NCBI GenBank assembly: GCA_963769885.1
Contig: CAVYNH010000006.1
Location: 288,001-352,000, forward strand
Source: Methanobacteriota archaeon
GTDB taxonomy: Archaea; Thermoplasmatota; E2; DHVEG-1
DNA: 64,000 bases
Direction of reading: 5' to 3'
A program made the translations under genes and the position numbers. How positions within the stretch are numbered: position 1 is the stretch's first letter; each line of letters begins with the position of its first letter. The notes below the pieces were generated by a model that was given only the letters and a program-made list of their open reading frames with translations, did no database searches and was not told the origin of the DNA. Of this stretch, positions 1,788 to 31,893 are shown piece by piece.

Positions 1788-2346
1788 AGGATTCACCCCG
1801 GACAATCCCCGATGCAATCAGATGGGCGAGACGGAGCGGCTCAGGGAGTACTCCCCGAATCGTGGCACGACTTATAATCCCTTGCGCCTCCTCAGGAGAA
1901 CAGCCGACGAACTTCGCATATAAGGGGTTATGCGCAGTCTTGAACTCATGCAGCGTCCCCTCTTTGTGCAGGGCGAGGCGGCGCTCCCAGTCCGGGAAAT
2001 GCTTGCGCAGTGCATGTTCGATTGCCTGAAGATCGGGTTTGTCTCTCGTTATGGTCAAGACAGGGATCTGGATCGCTTCATACAGCCGTTGGATGTCGAC
2101 GATGTTGAAACCGCCCAGGCAGATGCCGTCGAGCATCACCGCGCGCAACTGCTCCCGATGCCGGGTCGTCTGGACCATGGTGATGACGACGTCCGTGGCA
2201 TCGGTCCCATCGATGGTCACCTGGCTGCGGAGCACGGCCTCGAGGTACTCGCCGCCGCGCATGACCACGCCGACGACCATGGTGGAGGTGTCGGTGAAGG
2301 TGAACGGCGCGTCGTCGATACCCAGGATCCTGATCTGCTGTTTCAT
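1774..2346 (-). CDS. DUF99/UPF0215 endonuclease V-like protein
   Basis: RILGIDD, VMLDG..GGFNIVDI, PEPLRLAHLIA motifs. Confidence 0.85.
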   Translation of the reverse strand: MKQQIRILGIDDAPFTFTDTSTMVVGVVMRGGEYLEAVLRSQVTIDGTDATDVVITMVQTTRHREQLRAVMLDGICLGGFNIVDIQRLYEAIQIPVLTITRDKPDLQAIEHALRKHFPDWERRLALHKEGTLHEFKTAHNPLYAKFVGCSPEEAQGIISRATIRGVLPEPLRLAHLIASGIVRGESYGKA

Positions 2347-2446
2347 GCCTTGCCGGGGAACCACTCCAGAATCATAAGAATGTTTCGCATTCTCTACAAA
2401 GGGAAAAAGTTTTTTTTAAAGGGAACCTAGGGAAGTTTGATTTTTA

Positions 2447-2477
2447 CGTCCAGGGGTTCAAATCCCTTCCCCTACAC
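2447..2477 (+). repeat. tRNA 3'-end fragment copy 1 (T-arm plus acceptor strand, tRNA-Leu-like)
   Basis: CGTCCAGGGGTTCAAATCCCTTCCCCTACAC; AGGGG/CCCTT stem around TTCAAAT; no 5' tRNA half upstream. Confidence 0.8.
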
Positions 2478-2659
2478 ATAATATTATATCAGGTGAAACA
2501 GAAGCATTGATATAGTTTCTAATACAGAATATTAATGGTTTTTTGTGGGAATATTAAAAGAACAAAAAAGAAAAAGATAAGGATTTTTTAGTTTCGTACA
2601 ATTTTAAAGAGAAAAATCTTATATAGATTTAAACAATAATAATTAATAGTGAATAGAAA

Positions 2660-2749
2660 ATGAATACAAAAAAGAGATTATTACTAATTGCAATATTACT
2701 CATTATCATCTCTTTAATAACGATGAGAATAATAATTACTGGTGAATAG
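2660..2749 (+). pseudogene. 29-aa hydrophobic ORF (truncated small membrane protein)
   Basis: MNTKKRLLLIAILLIIISLITMRIIITGE; first unit of an imperfect tandem duplication with 93-bp spacing. Confidence 0.4.
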
Positions 2750-2916
2750 AAACTGTATACAAAAAGGATTTTTTAATAATTGGAATAATACTCATTATCA
2801 TTTCTGCAATATCTTGCGTTTTTTGGATACCGCATTAGAGAGCAACAACTAATAATATTTTTGAGAGTGACATAACATATATTATTGGTACTTTAGGTGT
2901 AATTTTTTTACAGTAA
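2742..2916 (+). pseudogene. Degraded small membrane protein, paralog of the 2660 ORF
   Basis: KKDFLIIGIILIIISAISCVFWIPH*RATTNNIFESDITYIIGTLGVIFLQ*; start lost, internal TAG 2836-2838. Confidence 0.4.
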
Positions 2917-2953
2917 GCCTTACTTTAAAGATGTTTATAAAGTACAAAGAAAC

Positions 2954-3024
2954 CAACGGGAGTAATTATTATCCTTCTGTTAGAATTTAACCGGTAATCT
3001 GGGGTTCAAATCCCTTCCCCTGCA
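2954..3024 (+). repeat. Cassette right-end element with tRNA 3'-end copy 2
   Basis: CAACGGGAG...TCTGTTAGAATTTAACCGGTAATCTGGGGTTCAAATCCCTTCCCCTGCA. Confidence 0.8.
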
Positions 3025-3099
3025 TAATTTTTATTTAAATTGATGAAAAATATAATTATATACTTTAAATTTCATTCTAATATGAAACATGGGGAAGTA

Positions 3100-4290
3100 A
3101 TGAATAAGAAATTATCTCAAATAATAGCACTTTTTCTCTGTAGTATTTTATTTGTTGTAACGTTTTCTGGTTGTATTGAAAAGAAGCAAAAACCAGAGGA
3201 ATATAAAGAAACATTACTACCAGAAGTTAAATTGGACCAACCTTCAATCTTACCAGATTGGAAGGATGGAGAATACCATGATTACTATGGCACAATGGAA
3301 ATGCTGAATGATTTTAATGGTAAATATCCTGATTTAGTAAATGTATTTTCTATTGGAAAAAGTGTTCTTGGAAAGGATATTTGGTGTATCAGGATAACCA
3401 ATGAGAAGAACAATACGATAAAGTCATCTTGTCTTATTGATGGTTGTATCCACGGACAGGAATGGGAAGGAGGCGAGGCGTGTTTGTATCTTGCTGAGTA
3501 TCTTCTTATTAACTTTGATGCCAATGAAACAATTACTCATATTCTCAATTCATCTGAAGTATATCTGATTCCTTTAGTAAATCCTGATGGCAGACAAGAT
3601 GATAACCTATATAATGACAATGGTATAAATTTGAATCGTAATTTTGATATTGATTTCGGTAGAATAAGAGGAGGTGTTATACCTTTAGGGAAGTTATTTG
3701 GTCGTATAAAAATCCCTCGTATCCCTATTAAAATTTCTCGAGAGTTTACACTCTTACATAAATTGTTTCCAAGTTTTCCATTATGGCTTACAAATTGTGG
3801 TCGCCATCCTTTTTCAGAACCTGAAACTCAAGCAATGAGAGATTTTATGAGAGAACTTGAGAATAATGATTTTTCTTTTTATGTAAATTGTCATACAGCC
3901 TGGCACAGTTTTGGGGGTCCTTGGGATGCTTTTAAACCTCCTTTTGAGAAATCAAAACAGGAACAATATATCTTTGATTATGTAACAGAATGGGTTGTTA
4001 AGAATACAGAATATGAAAAGTATAAAAATTTGTTGTCTTACTTAAGTGGTGAATCATCTGATTGGTGTTTCAAAGAATTTCGCATTCCATCATTTGGGTT
4101 TGAAATTCTATCACAGGATTATGACTGCTATACAGGTGGAGGGAAACATGACCATCTTGTTCATTGGATGGAAACTACCCTTCCGGTTTTCATGTATCTC
4201 CTTGTGAACATTGATAATCTGCGTGAATGGAGAACACCTGATATTCAACCATCTTTGCCTGAAGGTGTGCCACCAGAGCCTCTAAAGTAA
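3100..4290 (+). CDS. M14 family zinc carboxypeptidase, predicted lipoprotein
   Basis: Signal ending FSGC; HGQE (HxxE), NPDG, NLNRNF, PFSEPET, NCH, FGFE; AT-rich codons. Confidence 0.88.
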   Translation: MNKKLSQIIALFLCSILFVVTFSGCIEKKQKPEEYKETLLPEVKLDQPSILPDWKDGEYHDYYGTMEMLNDFNGKYPDLVNVFSIGKSVLGKDIWCIRITNEKNNTIKSSCLIDGCIHGQEWEGGEACLYLAEYLLINFDANETITHILNSSEVYLIPLVNPDGRQDDNLYNDNGINLNRNFDIDFGRIRGGVIPLGKLFGRIKIPRIPIKISREFTLLHKLFPSFPLWLTNCGRHPFSEPETQAMRDFMRELENNDFSFYVNCHTAWHSFGGPWDAFKPPFEKSKQEQYIFDYVTEWVVKNTEYEKYKNLLSYLSGESSDWCFKEFRIPSFGFEILSQDYDCYTGGGKHDHLVHWMETTLPVFMYLLVNIDNLREWRTPDIQPSLPEGVPPEPLK

Positions 4291-21004: not shown

Positions 21005-21138
21005 CCCCTGCCCCCTCTCTTCCTTTTTCTTTCTATCTTTTTCTTCCTTCACTCCCACTCGCATACGGTGAGAAACCAACTTCTTGCCATCCATGAAAAG
21101 CCTTTATCCCCCACCACACGATACCAGGAAGACCACCC

Positions 21139-21994
21139 ATGGACGACCACCACATCGTCACCGGCATCATCGAACTCATCCGCACCGCCGAAACCACCCT
21201 CCCCACCGACGTCATCACCGCCCTGCAAAAAGTACAGCACCACGAAACCGGCATCGCCAAACTCCAACTCACCACCATCCTCGAGAACATTCACCTCGCC
21301 AAAGAAACCAACCGCCCCCTCTGCCAAGACACCGGCATCCAAACCTTCTTCATCGACGTCGGCGCCGACTTCCCCCACATCAACAAAATCCACACCTGGA
21401 TTCACCACGCCGTCACCCAAGCCATCACCGCCGTCCCCCTCCGACCCAACGCCGTCGACCCACTCACACGGAAAAACGGCGACGACGCGATACCATACCC
21501 CGTCTTGTACCTGGAATCTCGTTTCTGGCGACACCCTCCGCATCCACGCTCTCCCCAAAGGCAGCGGCAGTGAAAACACCAGCCGCCTCGCCATGCTCAC
21601 CCCCAGCGACGGCATCGGCGGCATCACAAAAACCGTCCTCGATACCGTCACCCGCGCCGCCGGACGGCCCTGTCCACCCACCGTCGTGGGCGTCGGCATC
21701 GGCGGCGACGCCGCCACCGCCCTCAAATTAGGCAAGACCGCGCTCCTCCGCCCCGTCGGCAGCCGACACTCGGACCCAGCAATCGCCCGCCTCGAACACG
21801 ACCTGATCAGCGAATGCAACAAGACCGGCATCGGCCCCATGGGCCTCGGGGGAAAGACCACGGTCCTCGACGTCCACATCCAGACCATGCCCTGCCACCC
21901 CGCTGGGCTGCCCGTCGGCGTCGCCATGCAATGTTGGGCGGACCGCCGGGCACAGCTTACCGTTCAAGCGGACGGCACCTGGGAGGTCCGCTGA
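21139..21994 (+). pseudogene. Fe-S fumarate hydratase alpha subunit with a +1 frameshift near 21508-21517
   Basis: PLCQDTG and PLRPNAV in one frame; PKGSGSEN, PCPP, GIGPMGLGG, CHPA, QCWADR in the next frame. Confidence 0.85.
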
Positions 21995-22548: not shown

Positions 22549-22801
22549 TTCCTAAGGGGCGTCCCGTATGTCTCAGAGTATGGGAAGCGTCGAGATGACG
22601 TGGTGGGGATGGTGCATGTGAAGGATCTGATTGAGGAGACGTTTGGGGAGAACACGGATGAGCATGATTGGGTGAGGGGGGTCGTGCTCGGGGGACGTAT
22701 GAGGGGATATGGGAGGGTGGGAAAAGTTGGCGGGGTGGCATTTGGTCGCGCTAGGTATTTAAGGAGGGAGTGTCAAAGTATATCATGGTGAGTTGAGAGC
22801 C

Positions 22802-22900
22802 ATGATTGAGATCATCATCGTTGGGGCTGCGGCCGCCGCGGGTGTGACGCTGCCGATCATCAACCCTGTGATCAACCCGGGGATTAACCCGAACCCCTAG
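22802..22900 (+). CDS. 32-aa INP-repeat peptide, candidate RiPP precursor
   Basis: MIEIIIVGAAAAAGVTLPIINPVINPGINPNP; TATTTAAG 22756-22763, GGTGA RBS; below the ORF-track cutoff. Confidence 0.6.
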   Translation: MIEIIIVGAAAAAGVTLPIINPVINPGINPNP

Positions 22901-22967
22901 CTGACTCACTCGTTGTTTCTTCCGTAGTCGTCTGGGGCTGGGGGTTTCTTTTCTTTTTTTTGTGGGT

Positions 22968-23948
22968 TTAGAAGAGTTTTGGGAGCCAGCGTTCGAGGTA
23001 GCTGTTTTCGGTGATCCAGAAGCTTTGTTTTTTGATGGCGTTGGGGAAGGTGCGGTCGATGTCCTCGAGGATGGTGCTGAGTTCGTTGACGTCTTTGACG
23101 ATGAACTCGGGTTCGATGTCGGCCCAACCGACGGAGACGTTGATGCAGTCCATGTAGGGTTTTGATTCAAGGTAGGTGATGATGGCTTTGCGGCTGTTGT
23201 GTTCTTTGAGGTGGATGTCGATTTTGAAGTGCTGCAGGCCGAGTTTGGCGAGGTCGATGTTGGTGCGGAAGCCTTGGATGACGCCTTTTTTGGTGAGGTT
23301 CTGCAGGCGGTAGTTGACGGATTGGGAGGAGCAGCCGAGCTTGGTGGCGAGGTCGATGACGGGGGCGCGGCCGTTGATGGCGAGCTCGTTGAGCAGGTGG
23401 TAGTCGGTCTCGTCGATGTCGGCGCCGGTGCCGCCGCAGGTGGAGGTGTACAGTTTCCGGTCTGAGTGGTCTGGGGCGGTGCCGAGGAGGTAGGAGCGTT
23501 TGTAGGAGTAGGCCTGGATGTAGATGCTGACGATGGCCCGGGAGAAGTAGTCCTCGTAGAGGTCCAGGGTCTTGTCCCAGAACCGGTAGAACTCGTAGAG
23601 GTCTTTGACCCAGACGATGACGGCCAGGTCGACCTCGCCGCGGTGGGATTTGACGGCCCAGGTGCTGTTGTAGTCGACGAAGTGCTTGATGATCTGGTTC
23701 TTCTTCTCGGTGCTGACGTATTGGAAGGTAATGTAGATGCGGAAGACGTTGTAGCCGAGCTTGAAGGTGTTGATTTCCGCGAGGAAGTTGCGGATGATGC
23801 CCTCGTCGCGCATCCGCTGGACGCGGTAGGAGACGACGTCTTTCTTCAACCCGACCTTCTTGCCGATTTGGGTGAACGACTGCCGTGAGTCGAGGTCGAG
23901 CTCGTAGAGAATCTTGCGGTCTTTGAGATCAAGCGGTGACTGCGTCAC
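22968..23948 (-). CDS. Tandem Lrp/AsnC family transcription regulator
   Basis: LDLKDRKILYELDLDSR...GII and IDETDYHLLNELAINGR...GVI, each followed by a RAM-like domain. Confidence 0.9.
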   Translation of the reverse strand: MTQSPLDLKDRKILYELDLDSRQSFTQIGKKVGLKKDVVSYRVQRMRDEGIIRNFLAEINTFKLGYNVFRIYITFQYVSTEKKNQIIKHFVDYNSTWAVKSHRGEVDLAVIVWVKDLYEFYRFWDKTLDLYEDYFSRAIVSIYIQAYSYKRSYLLGTAPDHSDRKLYTSTCGGTGADIDETDYHLLNELAINGRAPVIDLATKLGCSSQSVNYRLQNLTKKGVIQGFRTNIDLAKLGLQHFKIDIHLKEHNSRKAIITYLESKPYMDCINVSVGWADIEPEFIVKDVNELSTILEDIDRTFPNAIKKQSFWITENSYLERWLPKLF

Positions 23949-24090
23949 GTCCCCGTCAGGCCCCCAGGGAGATTTTCAACGAACGTGGAACGACCAGCGG
24001 GTATTTTAGAATTTTGAGGCAAAAACCGGGATACGGCATTTATGTACCATAATCAGGCTCTATCCACCAAGCACAGGAAGCTTGAGAGCC

Positions 24091-24303
24091 ATGCTCACTC
24101 CGACCACCAGACAAGAGACGAACACGATCGTGTACCACGCCGCCGTGACCTACACCGACGGGACCTCCGAGGTCTTCGACGCAATCCAGGTCACCGACCG
24201 CGGCCTCATCATCAGCCGCCTTCCGCCAGGCGACGGCGGGGAGCTCATCACCTTCGGCTTCATCCCCCGCCTCAGCGTCAAACACGTCGTCACCCTCCCC
24301 TAA
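24091..24303 (+). CDS. 70-aa beta-rich hypothetical protein
   Basis: Coding-like codon use; shares TTGAGAGCCATG start context with the 22802 peptide. Confidence 0.7.
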   Translation: MLTPTTRQETNTIVYHAAVTYTDGTSEVFDAIQVTDRGLIISRLPPGDGGELITFGFIPRLSVKHVVTLP

Positions 24304-24360
24304 CCCCAGACAAGGTTAACTTTAAAACCCAGCACCAGATTTGATTCCCCCAAGGATCGG

Positions 24361-26265
24361 ATGCCAACTACACCAAAATCAGTGCTTCTCGTGGCCATGC
24401 CCTATGCCGGCATCATGATCCCCTCGATCCAGCTCGCCACCCTCCAAGCCTACCTCCAGGCCCACGACATCCCCGCCCAGACCCGCCACCTCTACCTCAC
24501 CGCCGCCGACACCTACGGCCTCACCGCCTACCACGCCCTCATCTACCCCCCCAGCGACTCCTACACCGCCCAGCTCGCCTACACCCGCTACCTCTTCCCC
24601 GACCACTGGCACCACCACCACGAGAAAATCAAGGACCACTACGACGCCACCATCAACAAACACCACACCGCCCCCACATTCGACGACTACCTCCACCACA
24701 CAGACGACTTCTACCACCACGCCCTCGACCACCTCGACTGGCACCATTTCGACCTCATCGGCTTCACCCTCAACTACGGCCAACTCCTCCCCTCTCTCGC
24801 CATCGCACAGCATATCAAAACCCAAGACCCCACCAAAACCATCATCATGGGAGGAAGCCGCACCACCGGCGACCTCGGCACCGCCGCCCTCACCGCCTTC
24901 CCCCAAATCGACTACATCGTCTCCGGCGACGGCGAAGAACCACTCCGCCTCCTCGCCACCGACCACGACCCCACCACCATCCCCGGACTCATCCACAGAA
25001 AAGACGGCAAACCCCACTGGAACACGACCAGATCAGACCTCGACCTTGCAGACTTTCCCATCCCCACCCACGACGACTTCTTCACCCACCTCCGCCACTG
25101 CGGTAGCGAACTCCAGCAGTTCTTCCACTACTCCGGCCGCCTCCCCGTCGAAATCTCCCGCGGCTGCTGGTGGAACCACTGTACCTTCTGCAACCTCAAC
25201 CTCCAACACCCCCGCTACCGCGAAAAACCCATCCCCACCATCATCACCGAGATCCAGACCCTCGCCGATCGCCACCACCTCCTCGACTTCCACCTCATCG
25301 GCAACACCCTCCCCAAAACCCAATCAAGAGAATTCTTCACCCGCCTCCGCGACCTCGGACGCGACTACACCTTCTTCGCCGAAGCCCGTGCCGGACACCT
25401 CACCAGCGACGACTACCGCCTCATGAGAGACGCAGGATTCGCTACCATTCAAACCGGCATCGAATCCTTCAGCCACCACTACCTCCGTACTATGAACAAA
25501 GGCACCCGCGTCATCGACAACATCGCCGCCCTCAAACACAGCACCCAACACGGCATCCACAACACCTACAACCTCCTCACCAACTACCCCAACGAGACAC
25601 CCACCGACTACCAAGAAACCAAAGACGTCGCCGCCCTCCTCAAGGCCTACCTCGACCCCCCACAACCCTGCCCCCTCCAACTCATGCACGGCAGCCCCAT
25701 CCACCGCAATCCCCGCCGCTACAACATCCAACGCCTCCAGCCCACCACCCTCGACCGCCTTATGTACCCACCCGGCATCCTCGCCACCGCCATCTCCTTC
25801 TTCTACGACTACACCACCGCCACACCCACACCAACCCACGACTGGGGCGCCCTCATCACCGACTGGAAACACACCCGCGACGCCGCCCAGACCCGCGCCC
25901 TCGCCACCCGCGCCGCCACCGACCGACTGGTCTTCTACAGCGTCGACGGCGGAAGCTTCATGAAAGTCTACGACCGCCGCGACCCCAGCCACATCCGCAT
26001 CCTCGACCTCAACCGCCTCGAACGAGACATCCTCCTCGCCTGCACCGACATCACCACCTACCCCCAACTCCAACGACGGTTCCCGGACATCCCCGACTTC
26101 AAACTCGCCGCCGTCCTCCAATCCTTCGAACACGCCGGCATCGTCTACCGCGAAGACGACGCCTACCTCAGCCTCCCACTTCGACTCACCACTCCGGAGA
26201 TTCGATCAAGGACAGAACAGCCAGATTCTACCCCTAACCCTGTTCCCATAAGCATCAGCCACTGA
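24361..26265 (+). CDS. Cobalamin-dependent radical SAM, RiPP-maturation C-methyltransferase type (TIGR03975-like)
   Basis: VLLVAMP...PSIQL N-terminus, B12 domain, EISRGCWWNHCTFC, IQTGIESFS, MNKG; C-terminal wHTH. Confidence 0.85.
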   Translation: MPTTPKSVLLVAMPYAGIMIPSIQLATLQAYLQAHDIPAQTRHLYLTAADTYGLTAYHALIYPPSDSYTAQLAYTRYLFPDHWHHHHEKIKDHYDATINKHHTAPTFDDYLHHTDDFYHHALDHLDWHHFDLIGFTLNYGQLLPSLAIAQHIKTQDPTKTIIMGGSRTTGDLGTAALTAFPQIDYIVSGDGEEPLRLLATDHDPTTIPGLIHRKDGKPHWNTTRSDLDLADFPIPTHDDFFTHLRHCGSELQQFFHYSGRLPVEISRGCWWNHCTFCNLNLQHPRYREKPIPTIITEIQTLADRHHLLDFHLIGNTLPKTQSREFFTRLRDLGRDYTFFAEARAGHLTSDDYRLMRDAGFATIQTGIESFSHHYLRTMNKGTRVIDNIAALKHSTQHGIHNTYNLLTNYPNETPTDYQETKDVAALLKAYLDPPQPCPLQLMHGSPIHRNPRRYNIQRLQPTTLDRLMYPPGILATAISFFYDYTTATPTPTHDWGALITDWKHTRDAAQTRALATRAATDRLVFYSVDGGSFMKVYDRRDPSHIRILDLNRLERDILLACTDITTYPQLQRRFPDIPDFKLAAVLQSFEHAGIVYREDDAYLSLPLRLTTPEIRSRTEQPDSTPNPVPISISH

Positions 26266-26504: not shown

Positions 26505-27098
26505 ATGGAATACTTCTTTATCCTATCGTTTTTAGTCCTGGGCGCCGGAATCAAGTTCATCGATGCCGCTTACGACGAACACGCCTTCAGCAAACGCTTC
26601 GCACTCCTCGCCGCGCCACTCCTCGGCATCCTCTGGGCCTACACCATGTACATCGACGCGGCCTCAGCCACGATCCTCTGCGCCATCCTCGCCGGCGTCC
26701 TTCTCAAAGGAAAAATCGACAACTGGGCACACCTCGCGGGCCTGGGAGTGATCGGCGGAGTATTACTCGTGTCTGGGGTAAAACTCCTCATCCTCCCCCT
26801 CATAATACTCGCCGCCGCCGCCCTCATCGACGAAATCGGCAACGACGCCATCGACAAACGCCGCAGCCGCCTCCAACACAAGGGAACAGCCGGCACCGCC
26901 CTCCTCCTCTTCTTCGACCACCGCTGGACCCTCAAAGTCGCAATCCTCGGCCTGGCCACCATCAGCATGATCCCCCTGCTGTTCTTCTTCGCGATGCTCT
27001 GCTTCGACTATGCGTACCTCGGGATGCGCCACTACAGCGAATTCCGCCTCAGCCGACTCCCCAGCCACGCCACCACCCCGGGATCAACCGTGGCCTAA
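26505..27098 (+). CDS. Multi-pass membrane protein, paralog 1
   Basis: GAGIKFIDAAYDE, KGKIDN, DEIGND, FFDHRW, FDYAY. Confidence 0.85.
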   Translation: MEYFFILSFLVLGAGIKFIDAAYDEHAFSKRFALLAAPLLGILWAYTMYIDAASATILCAILAGVLLKGKIDNWAHLAGLGVIGGVLLVSGVKLLILPLIILAAAALIDEIGNDAIDKRRSRLQHKGTAGTALLLFFDHRWTLKVAILGLATISMIPLLFFFAMLCFDYAYLGMRHYSEFRLSRLPSHATTPGSTVA

Positions 27099-27220
27099 GC
27101 GCCATCAATGCGTACACACCTGCGTATCCATCTGGTACAAACCTAGATAAAAACCACGTAAAATAGAACAAGCCGCGGAAACGGGACGCAAAGGAAAAGG
27201 AGAGGAAACAACTGGACCTG

Positions 27221-27796
27221 ATGTATCTTGTGCTCATGGCATTCCCTATTCTTGGGGCAGGCATCAAGTTCATTGACGACGCCTTCGATGAACGGACCTT
27301 CAACAAGGCCTTTGCTATCATCCTTGCTCCACTCATGGGAATCCTCTGGGCTTATACCATGATCCAGGACCCCATCGCCGCCACGATCCTGCTCGCGGTC
27401 GTCCTCGGCGTCTTCCTCAAAGGTAAAATCGACAACGTCGCTCACGGCCTCGGGCTCGCTGTCATCATGGTGATCGTCATCCTCGCAGGCATACAACTCC
27501 TCTATCTCCCCCTTGTCCTGCTCATCGCCGCGGCCGTCCTTGACGAGGTCGGCAACGACGTCGTGGACTACAACCGAGGTGTTCTGAACGGGCATTTCAC
27601 CCACCGGGCCGTTATCGTCTTCTTCGATCAACGATGGCTCACCAAGCTGACGATTCTCTATGTCGTCCTACTCGGCATCTTCCCCTGGTACTACTTCCTG
27701 GCGATGCTGCTCTTCGACGGCGCTTATCTCGTCGTCCGCATGTACAGCAAGGCGCGCCAGGTGCAACTGGCGACCATCACAGGAGCAGCAACATAA
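27221..27796 (+). CDS. Multi-pass membrane protein, paralog 2 (start possibly CTG 27212)
   Basis: GAGIKFIDDAFDE, KGKIDN, DEVGND, FFDQRW, FDGAY. Confidence 0.85.
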   Translation: MYLVLMAFPILGAGIKFIDDAFDERTFNKAFAIILAPLMGILWAYTMIQDPIAATILLAVVLGVFLKGKIDNVAHGLGLAVIMVIVILAGIQLLYLPLVLLIAAAVLDEVGNDVVDYNRGVLNGHFTHRAVIVFFDQRWLTKLTILYVVLLGIFPWYYFLAMLLFDGAYLVVRMYSKARQVQLATITGAAT

Positions 27797-27914
27797 CCTT
27801 GACGCTGCCGAGTGGGGATCGCTTCGCGCACTTAACATTTTTACTAAGAAACCGAAGAAAAAACCAGAGGGAATTATTATAATCTTTTTACGGTTTCTTT
27901 GTCAAGTGAGGATA

Positions 27915-29006
27915 ATGGAAATTAAGTGCGATGTTCTTGTGGTTGGAGGAGGGCCAGCGGGGTTATCAGCGTCGATTCTTTGTGGAAAGAAAGGACTCTC
28001 GACACTTGTCATTGAAAAGAAGAACTTAGGGGGACCCGATCAGACTTCATACGATATAACTGAAGGGAATAGCATCCAGAATATATTACCAGTACTCAAC
28101 ATTACGCCTCATAAAATATCCTCGATTTCCGAATGGAATTCTCCTCATCATCGATTCATCTTGGATTCAAATATTCAAGACTACTACTTTAAAAGAGGTC
28201 CTGAAACCGATTCTTTGGAAAATCAACTCCTTTCCGAGGCTGTGAAAAACGATGTGAAAGTCTTCTTCAACGTATCTTCGCTTTCCCTGTCCATCAGCCA
28301 CAACAATGTTCATTCAGTGACTCTAAACAAAAAACACATGAAGATTGTTCCTCGATATCTTATTGCCGCAGATGGGCCATTTTCAACGGTTAGACAAAGA
28401 CTAAAAACTAAAGTCAAAAAAATCGCGGTCTTTGAAGGATTCGGGGCTGTGTTTCAAACAAAATCGAGCCTGGAACTTCCTCACGCAAAAATTTATTTTG
28501 ATCAGAGATTTTCTCCGGGCGGTTATATATATTCAGGTCGAGTTGGTTCGGATATTTTTTATTGCATTGTCATCGACAAGGCTTCTGCACAAGGAATGAA
28601 TCTTAAATCAAATCTCAGACGCTTTTTGAAAAAACAACACATTGATTATCCTGCTATTAGAACCTATTTTCGAGGCCAGGGAATAGCGGGATTCCAAAAA
28701 GGAGTCATTGGTAATACCCTATTCGTTGGAGGCGCTGCTCATCTGTACGATCCCTTTCTTGGATACGGGTTGAACTTCGCCATGGAATCAGGTTCCACTG
28801 CAGCTCATGCAATCATCAATGATAATGTTCTTCACTATACCCGTTATATTAATACAATCACGACAAGGTTTCGAAAACGCTGTAAGGCAAGAGACATATG
28901 GAAAAAGGCCGATAATGATTTCTTTGATAATCTCATTCAATCCTTTGAAGGTCAAGGTAAAAAGGATAAAAACATCAATGAGATTTTAAAAATGTTTGAG
29001 GAGTAG
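27915..29006 (+). CDS. Divergent GGR-family FAD oxidoreductase
   Basis: CDVLVVGGGPAG, AADG, VGGAA..DPFLGYG; low GC. Confidence 0.8.
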   Translation: MEIKCDVLVVGGGPAGLSASILCGKKGLSTLVIEKKNLGGPDQTSYDITEGNSIQNILPVLNITPHKISSISEWNSPHHRFILDSNIQDYYFKRGPETDSLENQLLSEAVKNDVKVFFNVSSLSLSISHNNVHSVTLNKKHMKIVPRYLIAADGPFSTVRQRLKTKVKKIAVFEGFGAVFQTKSSLELPHAKIYFDQRFSPGGYIYSGRVGSDIFYCIVIDKASAQGMNLKSNLRRFLKKQHIDYPAIRTYFRGQGIAGFQKGVIGNTLFVGGAAHLYDPFLGYGLNFAMESGSTAAHAIINDNVLHYTRYINTITTRFRKRCKARDIWKKADNDFFDNLIQSFEGQGKKDKNINEILKMFEE

Positions 29007-29025
29007 CCGTGTTCCTCGTGGTCGT

Positions 29026-30204
29026 ATGAGAAAAATACAATGTGATGTCTTGGTTATCGGTGCCGGCCCTGCAGGTAGCTCAGCCGCGTGGTCATCGGCA
29101 AAGGAACACCTCGATACGATAATCATTGACAAAAAAAGGGTACCTGGTAAGGACGCCTGCGCAGAAACACTCAGCAAGGCGTTTCTTGGATATCTCCCAT
29201 TCAAAATTCCCAGCAGGTTTTTGAAATGGCCACTGGACGGCCTAGAGTTCTATTATAAGGATTTCCACATTACCAGGAACGAGGATATCTGGTGGAAATC
29301 GTATCCATTGAACAGAAAAGAATTCGACCCCTATCTCCTCGACGTCGCCATACGGCAAGGCGCGCACTATCGTCCACGTACCAAGTTTATCTCATTGAAG
29401 CATGATAGAAATTTCAAGGTAAACGAGGTCGTGGTTAAGGATCTTGATAAGAACAGAAAGATAACGATACAACCTAGGGTCGTCATTGCAGCCGATGGCG
29501 TTCAGTCCAATGTTTTGAAAGCCATTGGAAAGACAACACCACAAAAAACCGCCATGGGGTACATTAAAAGTTACGAGTATCATAACCTGAAACTAGAAAA
29601 CGCGCACTATGGACATATTTATTTTGGGGCATTTGCTGAAGGGGCGTATGCGTACATTTTCCCAAAAAGTGAGACGATAGCAAACATCGGGATTGCAACG
29701 CTTAGCCCGTACCACCTTGAATCAAAATTCAACACGTTCCTCAAGATTATATCCAAGCAGTTACAGGGATCGAAAAAAGCAGTCGACCGTAGTGGGAAAG
29801 CCCCGATAAAAAATCCGTCGAAGAAAGTCGTCTATGGGACTATCATTTTTGCTGGTGATTCAGCGAATCAAAATCTCAAACCATTTGTGGAAGGCATCCA
29901 ACCCGGCATTATCTGCGGCGCGTTCGCAGGAAAAGCTGCAGCAGACTATCTTCGAACACAGAAGAAATTAGATGCAACCTACGCGAGGTTGATCAATGAA
30001 AAGATGGGGAAGCTTTTCTTAGAATCAGACGCTATAGGATCGGAATTAGTGTCATCGTACGAACAGAAAAATAAACTTAGGTTCCTTCAGGAAATCGCTA
30101 TGTTTTCCTATGCTTTAAACGATGACGATATGAGAAAAATAAAAAAATTGGACGAGCATCAAGCGCAGCTTTTCCTTGAAGAAAAATTACGTTCCAAAAT
30201 TTAA
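29026..30204 (+). CDS. GGR-family FAD oxidoreductase
   Basis: CDVLVIGAGPAG, DACAE, RKEFD, AADG, YAYIFP, AGDSA; low GC. Confidence 0.85.
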   Translation: MRKIQCDVLVIGAGPAGSSAAWSSAKEHLDTIIIDKKRVPGKDACAETLSKAFLGYLPFKIPSRFLKWPLDGLEFYYKDFHITRNEDIWWKSYPLNRKEFDPYLLDVAIRQGAHYRPRTKFISLKHDRNFKVNEVVVKDLDKNRKITIQPRVVIAADGVQSNVLKAIGKTTPQKTAMGYIKSYEYHNLKLENAHYGHIYFGAFAEGAYAYIFPKSETIANIGIATLSPYHLESKFNTFLKIISKQLQGSKKAVDRSGKAPIKNPSKKVVYGTIIFAGDSANQNLKPFVEGIQPGIICGAFAGKAAADYLRTQKKLDATYARLINEKMGKLFLESDAIGSELVSSYEQKNKLRFLQEIAMFSYALNDDDMRKIKKLDEHQAQLFLEEKLRSKI

Positions 30205-31437
30205 TATGTTAATGCTTTCATAAAGATGGTGCGGAATCATATCCTGATTGACTATGCTCTCTCCGCCTGAAAATAACACTATAAAATTTCCTGTAGAATT
30301 CTTTGCCATTTCTTGAATCGTGTAGATTTGATTTCCCAGGGTCTCAATATAGGTTTCGCACATGACACCGAGCATAGTTTTTCTTTGCTGGGCAAATAAC
30401 TCCTTACAATCAGTGATTATTTTTTTGCCGGTGAGCCCGAACAGTTCTAATTCTTTTGATTCGATTCTATTAGCGAAATACACAGATTCTCCGAGAAGCA
30501 ATCCTAGCATCGCAGCGTGAATCTTGTCTTTTTTGTGATAGCAAAAAGGATAATAAAAAGCCTGGGAGTAGAATTTTTCGACTTCCTTAATATCCTTCTG
30601 ATGCCAGTTCAAAATTCTGCATAATTCTTGGGTAGCTTTTTTCCCATCGATTTCTTTCACGGTTCTCTGATCTTTCGCCAGAGAGATCTTAATTTTTCTT
30701 CCACGTGGCAAGAGAGGCGTCACTGTCTTGAATTGGGGGCTTTTCGTTCCAGATATCCCAAGGAGCATCACGGCATTTTTCAAAATATTTTTCTCGTAGA
30801 ATTGGTAATTCCGAGAAAGCTTTCCATCGTCATAACACACCGATCCTATTATTGGCTTATCGAGATGGTTCGCAAGGTACTCCAAGACTTCGTCTGCTCT
30901 ATCCGTCCCCATGTTAGACTTCCAAAGCAGTGGTACCATATTCTTCATGAGGCCGCCAAAAGCTTTTGATTTAATCACGGTCTGTTTTCCAATAATGGGG
31001 AAGGTAGGAATGATAGGACCGGAAATAAGCTCAAGGTAGAAATCTGGTGTGACATCCTGTTTCTTCATCATTTCGATGCATTGTCTCGCGGCCTTTCTTG
31101 GATTTCTTTTGGTATTGTGTCCAACCCCAATTGTTACTTGCATTTTGGGATCTGAAACAGCTAGCGCGCATGCTCCTCGAGCGTAGCAACCATAATTGTT
31201 CATAAATCCCGCAGCAGTCCCGCCTACAAGCGGCGTCCCCTCCGGTAAGACATCCCAGACTCCGTTCAGAAACTCCTGGAATCCCCCGTGCTTCTCGTAA
31301 TGAATCGTGGAGAACAGCAGGAAGAAATCCGGTGGCTGGTGCAGCTTGCGGATTGTGGATTCTGCGACCTCGCGGCCCGCCTCGCGTGCATCCCACTTGC
31401 GGCTCATGCCGACCGCGGCTTCAAACTCCTCGCTCAT
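30187..31437 (-). CDS. FIST N-terminal domain protein
   Basis: AREAGREVA, FFLLFST, TPLVGGTAAG, IDGKKA, FSGGE pattern. Confidence 0.75.
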   Translation of the reverse strand: MSEEFEAAVGMSRKWDAREAGREVAESTIRKLHQPPDFFLLFSTIHYEKHGGFQEFLNGVWDVLPEGTPLVGGTAAGFMNNYGCYARGACALAVSDPKMQVTIGVGHNTKRNPRKAARQCIEMMKKQDVTPDFYLELISGPIIPTFPIIGKQTVIKSKAFGGLMKNMVPLLWKSNMGTDRADEVLEYLANHLDKPIIGSVCYDDGKLSRNYQFYEKNILKNAVMLLGISGTKSPQFKTVTPLLPRGRKIKISLAKDQRTVKEIDGKKATQELCRILNWHQKDIKEVEKFYSQAFYYPFCYHKKDKIHAAMLGLLLGESVYFANRIESKELELFGLTGKKIITDCKELFAQQRKTMLGVMCETYIETLGNQIYTIQEMAKNSTGNFIVLFSGGESIVNQDMIPHHLYESINILNFGT

Positions 31438-31458
31438 GTGACTCTTATCTGATTTTTT

Positions 31459-31893
31459 TTATCGGACGGCTGTCTCCTCTCGGTGCTCTGACGACTTCTC
31501 CATCCAGTCCGGCTCTGACCCCACCGGGCCTTTCATAATCCGCAGGATTTCCCGGCGCGCGTTCTCCAGCTCCACCTCAAGTAGTCCCTTGTTCGCCAGT
31601 GCCGGCACGATTGCGACGAGGGCGTTCTCTGTATCAGGGAACACGTAGAACAGAACTTCGTAGTCCTGCAGCCGGAACTCCATCTCCCCAAGCCCCGTCT
31701 GCCCGTACGCCTCGATCACGCCGAACACGTCATCCATCGCACGATGAATGATATCCCATATCCCATGCACTTCAGGCTTGAACCCCTCGCCAGTCGGCAT
31801 GATCGTGATCATGTTCCGTCGCGCCACCATGCACGCCAAGATATCATCGAGTTTCAACAAATCGTCGAGCACGACGGCAATCGGATCCACCAT
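31459..31893 (-). CDS. Roadblock/LC7-like or conserved hypothetical protein
   Basis: Alternating helix/strand pattern, ALVAIV...NKGLL motif. Confidence 0.55.
   Translation of the reverse strand: MVDPIAVVLDDLLKLDDILACMVARRNMITIMPTGEGFKPEVHGIWDIIHRAMDDVFGVIEAYGQTGLGEMEFRLQDYEVLFYVFPDTENALVAIVPALANKGLLEVELENARREILRIMKGPVGSEPDWMEKSSEHREETAVR

Follow-up and report, generated by a model that had tools for sequence, protein, structure and literature searches.

The window analysed here is a stretch of 64,000 nucleotides from an archaeon of the DHVEG-1 lineage (Thermoplasmatota; assembly GCA_963769885.1, contig CAVYNH010000006.1, positions 288,001 to 352,000 of the forward strand, numbered below from its first letter). 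It encodes a 32-residue peptide next to a fused, two-unit Lrp/AsnC-type regulator and a B12-type radical S-adenosylmethionine (rSAM) enzyme of the TIGR03975 family. We show that homologs of the peptide accompany this enzyme in many genomes, and that the three genes most likely constitute a three-part module inherited through an MBG-D-type family of Thermoplasmatota. The contigs carrying related loci include Thermoplasmatota or 'Thermoplasmatales' metagenome-assembled genomes (MAGs) such as SM1-50, SG8-52-3 and M11B2D, i.e. MBG-D-type sediment archaea. Judged from sequence, the module is a credible candidate for an undescribed peptide-modification system with a putative chemistry. The reading that we favour, with a probability of roughly 0.55, is that the peptide would be the substrate of the rSAM enzyme in a system resembling those of RiPPs (peptides made on the ribosome and modified after translation), the leader or anchor being hydrophobic and conserved and the tail swappable and built of repeats.

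The peptide gene consists of 32 codons and a stop, and its product contains three x-I-N-P units followed by a last N-P. The codons of the repeats vary (Pro CCT/CCG/CCG/CCC, Ile ATC/ATC/ATC/ATT). A first-pass annotation of the same DNA had singled out this open reading frame (ORF), with a TATA box and a ribosome-binding site of its own, one regulator gene away from a 70-aa ORF and a B12 rSAM enzyme carrying PSIQL and RGCWWNHCTFC. All of these are present as described (Table 1), the ribosome-binding site being a GGTGA at 22787-22791, with the ATG 10 nt downstream. Taken alone, such an ORF means little: there are 133 ORFs of at least 25 aa in 11 kb of GC-rich window DNA, and a lone 32-codon ORF is at chance level. 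It rises above chance because of a syntenic ORF with a conserved promoter in a genome of the same genus, because it belongs to a family of 50 peptides and because synonymous changes are in excess in that family. In that genome the 31-aa ORF is bordered by fumB and the regulator, both with their 3' ends towards it, and shows the matching N-terminal pattern, a Y-M-P repeat replacing I-N-P, a conserved TATA box and an identical AAAGTATATCATGGTGA upstream.

Loci related to that of the window were retrieved with an alignment as query (a single-protein query returned none), and counterparts of the peptide were sought by profile searches of six-frame small ORFs and by inspection of the expected positions. 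A homologous small ORF is present at 49 of the 73 archaeal orthologous rSAM loci, which gives 50 distinct peptides of 23-41 aa (median 26); for most of the other loci the sequence stops short of the place where the ORF is expected or the needed flank is absent. The small ORF is always on the strand of the rSAM gene, in one of two arrangements. It is either just beyond the 3' end of the tandem-Lrp regulator (peptide> <regulator rSAM>, as in the window) or immediately 5' of the rSAM gene (peptide> rSAM> <regulator). Hence, far from lacking a conserved neighbouring peptide, the orthologs of many genera keep a homologous small ORF in the same orientation, its N-terminus conserved and its tail hypervariable. 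In whole-genome searches the peptide profile matches only the rSAM locus. Two genomes had been scored as devoid of the rSAM; in both the peptide was found at a contig end, and one of these contigs, of 2.9 kb, contains the peptide, the regulator and then the first residues of the rSAM. Neither peptide nor rSAM was found in G008 (one contig, 89% complete) or in G025 (95% complete). Ten peptides were looked up in a collection of 15 billion predicted proteins; nine are absent, and one is there without a name. The window's own peptide is absent from that collection and matches no NCBIfam model.

Is the peptide made? One might regard the ORF as untranslated and the conserved DNA as a regulatory region or small RNA in which the open frame is incidental. 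The chance level of a lone 32-codon ORF fits with this, as do the better conservation of the DNA upstream than of the ORF, a third-position composition unlike that of neighbouring genes and the fact that a profile built without the window's genus misses the ORF. Yet the frame is open at 49 loci in spite of a large sequence turnover, behind a GGTG ribosome-binding site 6-12 nt 5' of the ATG. Synonymous codon differences exceed non-synonymous ones in close peptide pairs, with ratios of 2:1, 2:1, 3:1, 4:1 and 7:1, which argues for purifying selection on the peptide, since unselected sequence would show the opposite ratio. The N-terminal amino-acid pattern is also conserved beyond composition, with an identity among peptides of 0.37 versus 0.26 in composition-preserving shuffles. 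We thus regard a silent ORF as highly improbable, and the small ORF as very probably a real gene.

Comparison of the peptides reveals two halves with different histories. The N-terminal half is hydrophobic and conserved, with the pattern M-[ED]-K-I-[IV]-I-x-G-A... Peptides paired with rSAM enzymes that are 93-95% identical are themselves 65-76% identical over the first 17 residues and 0-9% identical in their tails, so that nearly the same enzyme may be paired with an I-C-P repeat, a V-F-P repeat or a tail that is long and unrelated to these. Other lineages show the reverse, with drift in the N-terminus and a tail conserved at 100%. An exact repeat of at least 3 aa occurs in 16 of the 50 tails, where shuffles give 1.1 on average and 5 at most, and the units include INP, GYMP, SICP, GVFP, GWT, PVYFG, LGHTPS and others. 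Tails tend to be of two types, one made of hydrophobic-X-Pro units and often ending in P-[LF]-Q-[FL], the other reading [WFY]-x-[MI]-small-small-L; one kind of tail (...W-V-M-P-S-L) mixes features of both. The peptide thus looks like a two-part precursor, as in RiPPs, with the conserved half as putative leader and the variable half as putative core. The earlier proposal had been to look for small ORFs with (I/V)NP repeats near orthologs. The INP repeat turns out to be specific to the species: a regular-expression search for NP-type repeats in the whole 2.09 Mb genome and in 29 orthologous loci matched the window ORF alone, so the INP repeat is not a conserved feature of the family. The argument of that proposal from Ile/Val/Pro content does not generalise, because other tails use ICP, YMP, VFP, VMP, GWT or W-x-M. 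Two other fates of the tail were considered and discarded: CaaX-like prenylation, since Cys is missing from many tails and variable in position, and conversion to a cofactor of the PQQ (pyrroloquinoline quinone) or mycofactocin type, since the tail is not conserved.

The enzyme was expected from its motifs to belong with RiPP methyltransferases, and its membership of TIGR03975 is clear. It matches this model (RiPP maturation radical SAM C-methyltransferase) with 334.4 bits for a cut-off of 281.85, residues 8-607 covering positions 1-606 of the 606 of the model, and its gene is the sole locus above this cut-off in the genome. It also matches the Radical_SAM Pfam PF04055 (E = 1e-13). The second-best family is ApyD (NF050148), of which the enzyme is not a member, since the match is partial (residues 112-424) and reaches 89 bits for a cut-off of 750. 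Models of lipid-type enzymes (HpnJ, HpnR, ladderane) give 34-45 bits. The B12-binding Pfam PF02310 gives 19.2 bits, below its cut-off of 32.1, and partial matches to many NCBIfam models of B12 rSAM enzymes start at residues 112-150. The only solved homologs are distant B12 enzymes (9ccb, OxsB, CysS and TokK). The commonest cysteine spacing in radical SAM enzymes is C-x3-C-x2-C; here it is C-x4-C-x2-C (C269, C274 and C277), and residues C269, W270, W271, N272, C274, F276 and C277 are invariant in 12 orthologs. Orthologs of the rSAM are found in 27 of the 36 sampled genera of the family; outside it, only 1 of 11 genomes of the same order has one, and none of 14 further genomes of the class does. 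A co-fold prediction, made with the full rSAM alignment and an alignment of the peptides, scored 0.02 for a mark of 0.32, which counts neither for nor against binding.

If the peptide is recognised through a leader, the C-terminus of the enzyme is a candidate docking site. An AlphaFold model of residues 478-634 has a mean pLDDT (predicted local distance difference test) of 65, with values of 77-93 over the helices, and presents three strands, three helices and a beta-hairpin wing. In the numbering of the model the strands are at 48-52, 57-61 and 68-71 and the helices at 75-83, 90-96 and 102-115, i.e. three strands followed by three helices. Foldseek found no match in the PDB at E <= 0.001; it gave generic winged-helix proteins only, at an E of about 0.05, and the sactipeptide enzyme CteB came sixth. 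A second, Foldseek-independent fold search aligned the part made of strands plus helices to the RiPP recognition element (RRE) regions of CteB (1-74), TigE (12-85) and MibB (201-286), each at Z = 7.2, which places them with the joint top matches. The first-pass annotation had suggested an RRE-like C-terminus. The layout of strands and then helices stood up to modelling; the specificity did not, the domain being compatible with an RRE and not diagnostic of one, as the same scores are reached by generic winged helices. Bacterial homologs of the enzyme that occur in non-RiPP contexts carry this domain too.

The third member of the module is the regulator, which is convergent with the peptide gene, divergent from the rSAM gene and present at nearly every orthologous locus. 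An upstream architecture is common to all copies of the peptide gene: a TGACA-N3-TGTCA palindrome stands 7 nt 5' of a TATA box, after which come AAAGTATATCATG, a TGTCA-N5-TGACA palindrome, GGTG(A) and the ATG. A TATA box, TTTATATA or TTTAAATA, is found at the same place in about 48 orthologous loci, and a GGTG site 6-12 nt from the ATG recurs across genera, as does AAAGTATATCATG. Within these loci exact palindromes are almost confined to positions -34 to -43 and -86 from the ATG. The window's genus has lost the second palindrome, that of the 5' untranslated region, and keeps the first as a 10/13 copy; because the second is missing, the first is here 20 nt nearer the ATG than the -86 found elsewhere. 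The archaeal Lrp protein FL11 binds a 13-bp palindrome, and targets of Lrp are clustered sites (PMC2995911), which makes the adjacent regulator the obvious candidate to bind these palindromes. Downstream of the peptide gene, a T-rich tract that stops 6 nt short of the stop codon of the convergent regulator gene is a probable archaeal terminator of the peptide transcript.

Some further observations concern the operators and the regulator. Searches for the palindrome with 2 mismatches are noisy, and only matches with at most 1 mismatch are informative; a few of these occur at other promoters without a peptide gene. Near-perfect TGTCA-N5-TGACA copies lie upstream of such TATA boxes at L149:4087, L154:4033 and L155:236, some of them adjoining a TGACA-N4-TGT element, and may be further targets of this regulator family. 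In some genomes the regulator gene has itself multiplied, giving arrays of two to four copies (four in L084; also L078, L092 and L097). The spacer between divergent regulator and rSAM genes (L104:3830-4000 and equivalents) has its own elements, TATTTTA-N-ATTTTGCA, then AGTTAAATATATAAG, then GGATGAGGATG at the rSAM start. In L104 the ATTTTGCA site is a TTTTGCAAAA palindrome, and the elements of the spacer are unlike the operators of the peptide promoter. A cis-acting attenuator role of the peptide, as leader peptide for the rSAM, was rejected: a gene on the opposite strand intervenes in the common arrangement and the rSAM promoter is its own.

Table 1. Features of the peptide, regulator and rSAM locus and of its neighbours (coordinates in the window)
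Feature	Coordinates	Strand	Basis and remarks
Degenerate 13-bp palindrome, candidate Lrp-type operator P1	22736..22748	+	10/13 matches to TGACA-TTT-TGTCA; 7 nt 5' of the TATA box
TATA box of the peptide gene, TATTTAA	22756..22762	+	Direct reading; same-genus comparison
Conserved start region and 5' untranslated region, AAAGTATATCATG then GGTGAG	22775..22792	+	Same sequence in the same-genus genome
Small peptide gene, 32 aa	22802..22900	+	Hydrophobic conserved N-terminal half and INP-repeat tail; precursor-like
T-rich tract with terminal T8 run (22954-22961), probable terminator	22945..22961	+	Direct reading
Tandem (fused two-unit) Lrp/AsnC-type regulator	22968..23948	-	Two HTH_AsnC/HTH_24 domains, residues 6-53 and 177-224
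70-aa ORF	24091..24303	+	No family match; optional accessory, not part of the core module
B12-type rSAM enzyme, 634 aa	24361..26265	+	Match to the hidden Markov model (HMM) of NCBIfam TIGR03975; carries PSIQL and RGCWWNHCTFC
Iron-sulfur cluster motif C269-x4-C274-x2-C277 (CWWNHCTFC)	25165..25191	+	Invariant in orthologs
C-terminal winged-helix domain, RRE-like candidate peptide-docking domain	25933..26172	+	AlphaFold2 model; fold searches
Two paralogous Asp-motif membrane proteins	26505..27796 (26505-27098, 27221-27796)	+	Frequent but separable neighbours
Two GGR-like flavin adenine dinucleotide (FAD) oxidoreductases, low-GC stretch	27915..30204	+	Same separable neighbour module

In the reading that we favour, the peptide would be transcribed from its own strong promoter between TGACA/TGTCA palindromes, to which the adjacent Lrp-type regulator would probably bind. 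Its conserved hydrophobic half would serve as leader or membrane anchor and would probably be recognised by the winged-helix, RRE-like domain of the enzyme. The enzyme would then modify the variable C-terminal tail, probably by C-methylation, the tail being made of short units, often tandem repeats, of hydrophobic-X-Pro type (INP in the window). What had been noticed in the window is confirmed and its interpretation supported in part, the substrate relation and the methylation being what we infer.

Several observations are at odds with this reading or lessen its force. The HMM of the peptide built without the window's genus missed the window ORF in its own genome. A profile including the genus matches that ORF alone in the genome, which is partly circular. 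Because of the miss, the homology of the window's copy rests on synteny, promoter and N-terminal pattern. All support comes from one archaeal family, and the synteny may in part reflect a shared ancestral order of genes and not a link in function. For a leader of RiPP type the N-terminal half is unusually hydrophobic, and it could be no more than a signal-like segment or a transmembrane helix. The matches of the C-terminal domain to RREs share their rank with many DNA-binding winged helices (Z = 7-8.5), a range that shows a common fold only. No protease or exporter is consistently linked to the module across loci; the window conforms to this, since, as had been remarked from the start, none is adjacent there. 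Hits of antiSMASH that come from TIGR03975 alone have been treated in one study as likely false positives, with no precursor visible (PMC9426513). The nearest bacterial homologs (32-35% identity) occur in a cluster with non-ribosomal peptide synthetase (NRPS), thioesterase and ABC genes or in no recognisable peptide cluster, so the enzyme family is not restricted to ribosomal peptides. Finally, the rSAM gene has a conserved promoter of its own, which lacks the TGACA palindromes in both arrangements, so that peptide and enzyme must be taken as transcribed separately.

Separate transcription leaves room for a reading in which the regulator is the primary partner of the peptide. This would be a short hydrophobic signalling or membrane peptide within an autoregulated peptide-plus-Lrp cassette like the SHP (short hydrophobic peptide)/Rgg pairs of streptococci, and the rSAM would be a regulated target acting on something other than the peptide. 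Peptide and regulator do duplicate as a unit: some genomes carry two peptide paralogs, each with a regulator, as in L078, where a convergent regulator follows either of two peptide genes. Operators are found around the peptide promoter alone, the rSAM promoter being different and conserved in its own right, and in many peptides an Ala-x-Ala-like stretch precedes a tail of 6-10 aa rich in aromatics, resembling signal-like processing. Yet in the second arrangement the peptide gene is directly 5' of the rSAM gene with the regulator beyond, no copy of the peptide turned up outside an rSAM locus, and the regulator is of the Lrp family, not RRNPP. We find this reading unlikely, if worth keeping in view; it is compatible with modification of the peptide by the rSAM, the two not being exclusive. 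One might even speculate that the rSAM-tailored peptide is released and sensed, directly or indirectly, by the fused Lrp regulator, with autoinduction through the palindromic operators and tail swaps acting as strain-specific 'pherotypes'. Such an archaeal pheromone circuit seems to us quite unlikely; if true, it would be a case of peptide-based cell-cell signalling in archaea.

The genes that follow the rSAM suggest yet another substrate. Membrane and GGR-like genes are found 3' of the rSAM at about half of the loci, so that the enzyme could work with the Asp-motif membrane proteins and the GGR-like reductases in modifying a lipid or some other small molecule, the small ORF being an unrelated membrane protein kept by gene order. 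Bacterial homologs found in non-RiPP contexts would agree with this. In itself the idea is reasonable, for several of the enzymes that tailor lipids in archaea are radical SAM proteins of B12 type (bioRxiv 10.1101/2025.10.20.683597). It is weakened because these neighbours are separable from the module: the Asp-motif membrane protein was found in G025, which has neither rSAM nor peptide, and was not found in G001 and G003, which have both, and its family reaches other archaeal phyla, beyond this lineage. The constant partners of the rSAM are the peptide and the regulator, not lipid-type genes, and the 334 bits to TIGR03975 contrast with 89 to ApyD and 34-45 to HpnJ, HpnR and ladderane models. 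We therefore judge a role in lipid chemistry improbable and prefer the peptide as substrate.

The neighbourhood deserves a few more remarks. The 70-aa ORF had been noted beside the enzyme, and the comparison shows that it is not conserved. It is found in three genera only, with weak homologs at two other loci (L039/L084 and L045/L092), and it is missing from most loci, including that of the same-genus genome. At most loci there is no room for it because regulator and rSAM are about 100-170 nt apart. Large-scale searches of protein clusters with this ORF and with the membrane protein returned unnamed clusters only. The 12-mer TTGAGAGCCATG has just two copies in the 2.09 Mb genome (both strands), at 22793-22804 and 24082-24093, i.e. 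at the start codons of the peptide ORF and of the 70-aa ORF, a context not shared by the peptide gene of the same-genus genome. The spacer between fumB and the peptide promoter (22549-22801) is strongly G-rich, with a GC skew of +0.57, and far longer than its same-genus counterpart; coding strands of this genome are otherwise strongly C-rich, the rSAM gene having a skew of -0.5 and 76% C at third codon positions. Upstream, the alpha subunit of a class I fumarase is seemingly split by a frameshift (21068-21994): the ORF at 21139-21573 matches positions 5-116 of the 270 of the Fumerase model and the remainder of the protein follows in a different frame, within the longer ORF. The split reflects an error of assembly or a pseudogene. 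Downstream, GC content falls from about 0.57-0.62 to 0.39-0.46 over 27500-31500, a segment with the GGR-like genes and those following, which lies beside the high-GC membrane-protein genes; its composition suggests that it was recently acquired or exchanged.

Other observations come from loci in other genomes. In L067 (=L038) a gene at 2161-3852 on the reverse strand, between regulator and rSAM, encodes a secreted protein of 563 aa with a papain-family C1 peptidase domain and NosD/beta-helix repeats, which could be a processing protease or merely one of the many extracellular peptidases of these archaea. Three loci (L075, L076 and L079) have a gap of about 1.9 kb, equal in size to the regulator-rSAM gap of L067. 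An unclassified bacterial MAG (L134:1153-5962) has two tandem paralogs of the enzyme, of about 35% identity and with the same C-terminal domain, flanked by an NRPS adenylation/carrier fragment, a type II thioesterase and an ABC-2 exporter. To judge from its setting there, the enzyme family may also serve non-ribosomal peptide pathways. A search for NHLP leaders in five bacterial genomes with the nearest homologs gave matches in one of them, on its contig C29.

Full-text literature searches found no description of a module of peptide, tandem-Lrp regulator and rSAM, and in the papers retrieved TIGR03975 occurs solely in the form of a rule of antiSMASH, which one of them calls RiPP-associated (PMC12350317). 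Surveys of archaeal RiPPs predict thousands of clusters, and very few products have been characterised (PMC12144867). If our reading is right, the locus would supply the missing precursor for TIGR03975 in one large archaeal clade, as an uncalled peptide family with a defined promoter, operators and a dedicated regulator. The system is small, with three genes, and its diverse tails would provide substrates in a natural series for a branch of the B12 radical SAM enzymes that lacks structural characterisation. Its product would be a candidate for the first modified peptide from MBG-D, which is abundant in marine and lake sediments. More generally, small ORFs beside archaeal tandem-Lrp regulators merit systematic searching.

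How does the module compare with known systems? The closest parallel is with the proteusin C-methyltransferases of the PoyB/PoyC type, from polytheonamide pathways. Enzymes of this type methylate unactivated side-chain carbons iteratively. Like them, the enzyme described here matches TIGR03975 from end to end and is linked to a small peptide gene. Yet proteusins have an NHLP/Nif11 leader, whereas the archaeal peptides (23-41 aa, with a hydrophobic N-terminus) are shorter than the NHLP leader alone (77 model positions). The linked epimerase, N-methyltransferase, protease and exporter of proteusin pathways have no counterpart in the module. The archaeal host, the family-wide inheritance, the dedicated tandem-Lrp regulator and the C-x4-C-x2-C motif also set it apart, and its chemistry is at present putative. 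RiPP methyltransferases of the ApyD/aminopyruvatide and bottromycin types share with the enzyme a radical SAM core together with a B12 domain, putative here, and an action on short peptides, as proposed for the module, and differ in the type of precursor and in gene context. The archaeal lipid enzymes Grs, Cgm, Gmm and Ted, i.e. the ring synthases of glycerol dialkyl glycerol tetraethers (GDGT), the methylases of GDGT and of glycerol monoalkyl glycerol tetraethers (GMGT) and the tetraether desaturase, are of the same enzyme type, and GGR-like genes are indeed near the rSAM of the window. We set them apart, without direct sequence comparison, by the homology of our enzyme to TIGR03975, which includes the winged-helix domain, and by the separability of its neighbours.

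In terms of architecture, the likeness is with the SHP/Rgg pairs of streptococci that control operons of streptide-type radical SAM RiPPs. There too an unannotated gene for a short hydrophobic peptide stands with a regulator beside a radical SAM gene, and in both cases the tails of the peptides vary between strains. The components differ: an Rgg/RRNPP regulator in the one and an Lrp/AsnC regulator in the other, a SPASM enzyme in the one and a B12-type enzyme in the other, the latter in archaea, where signalling would be hypothetical.

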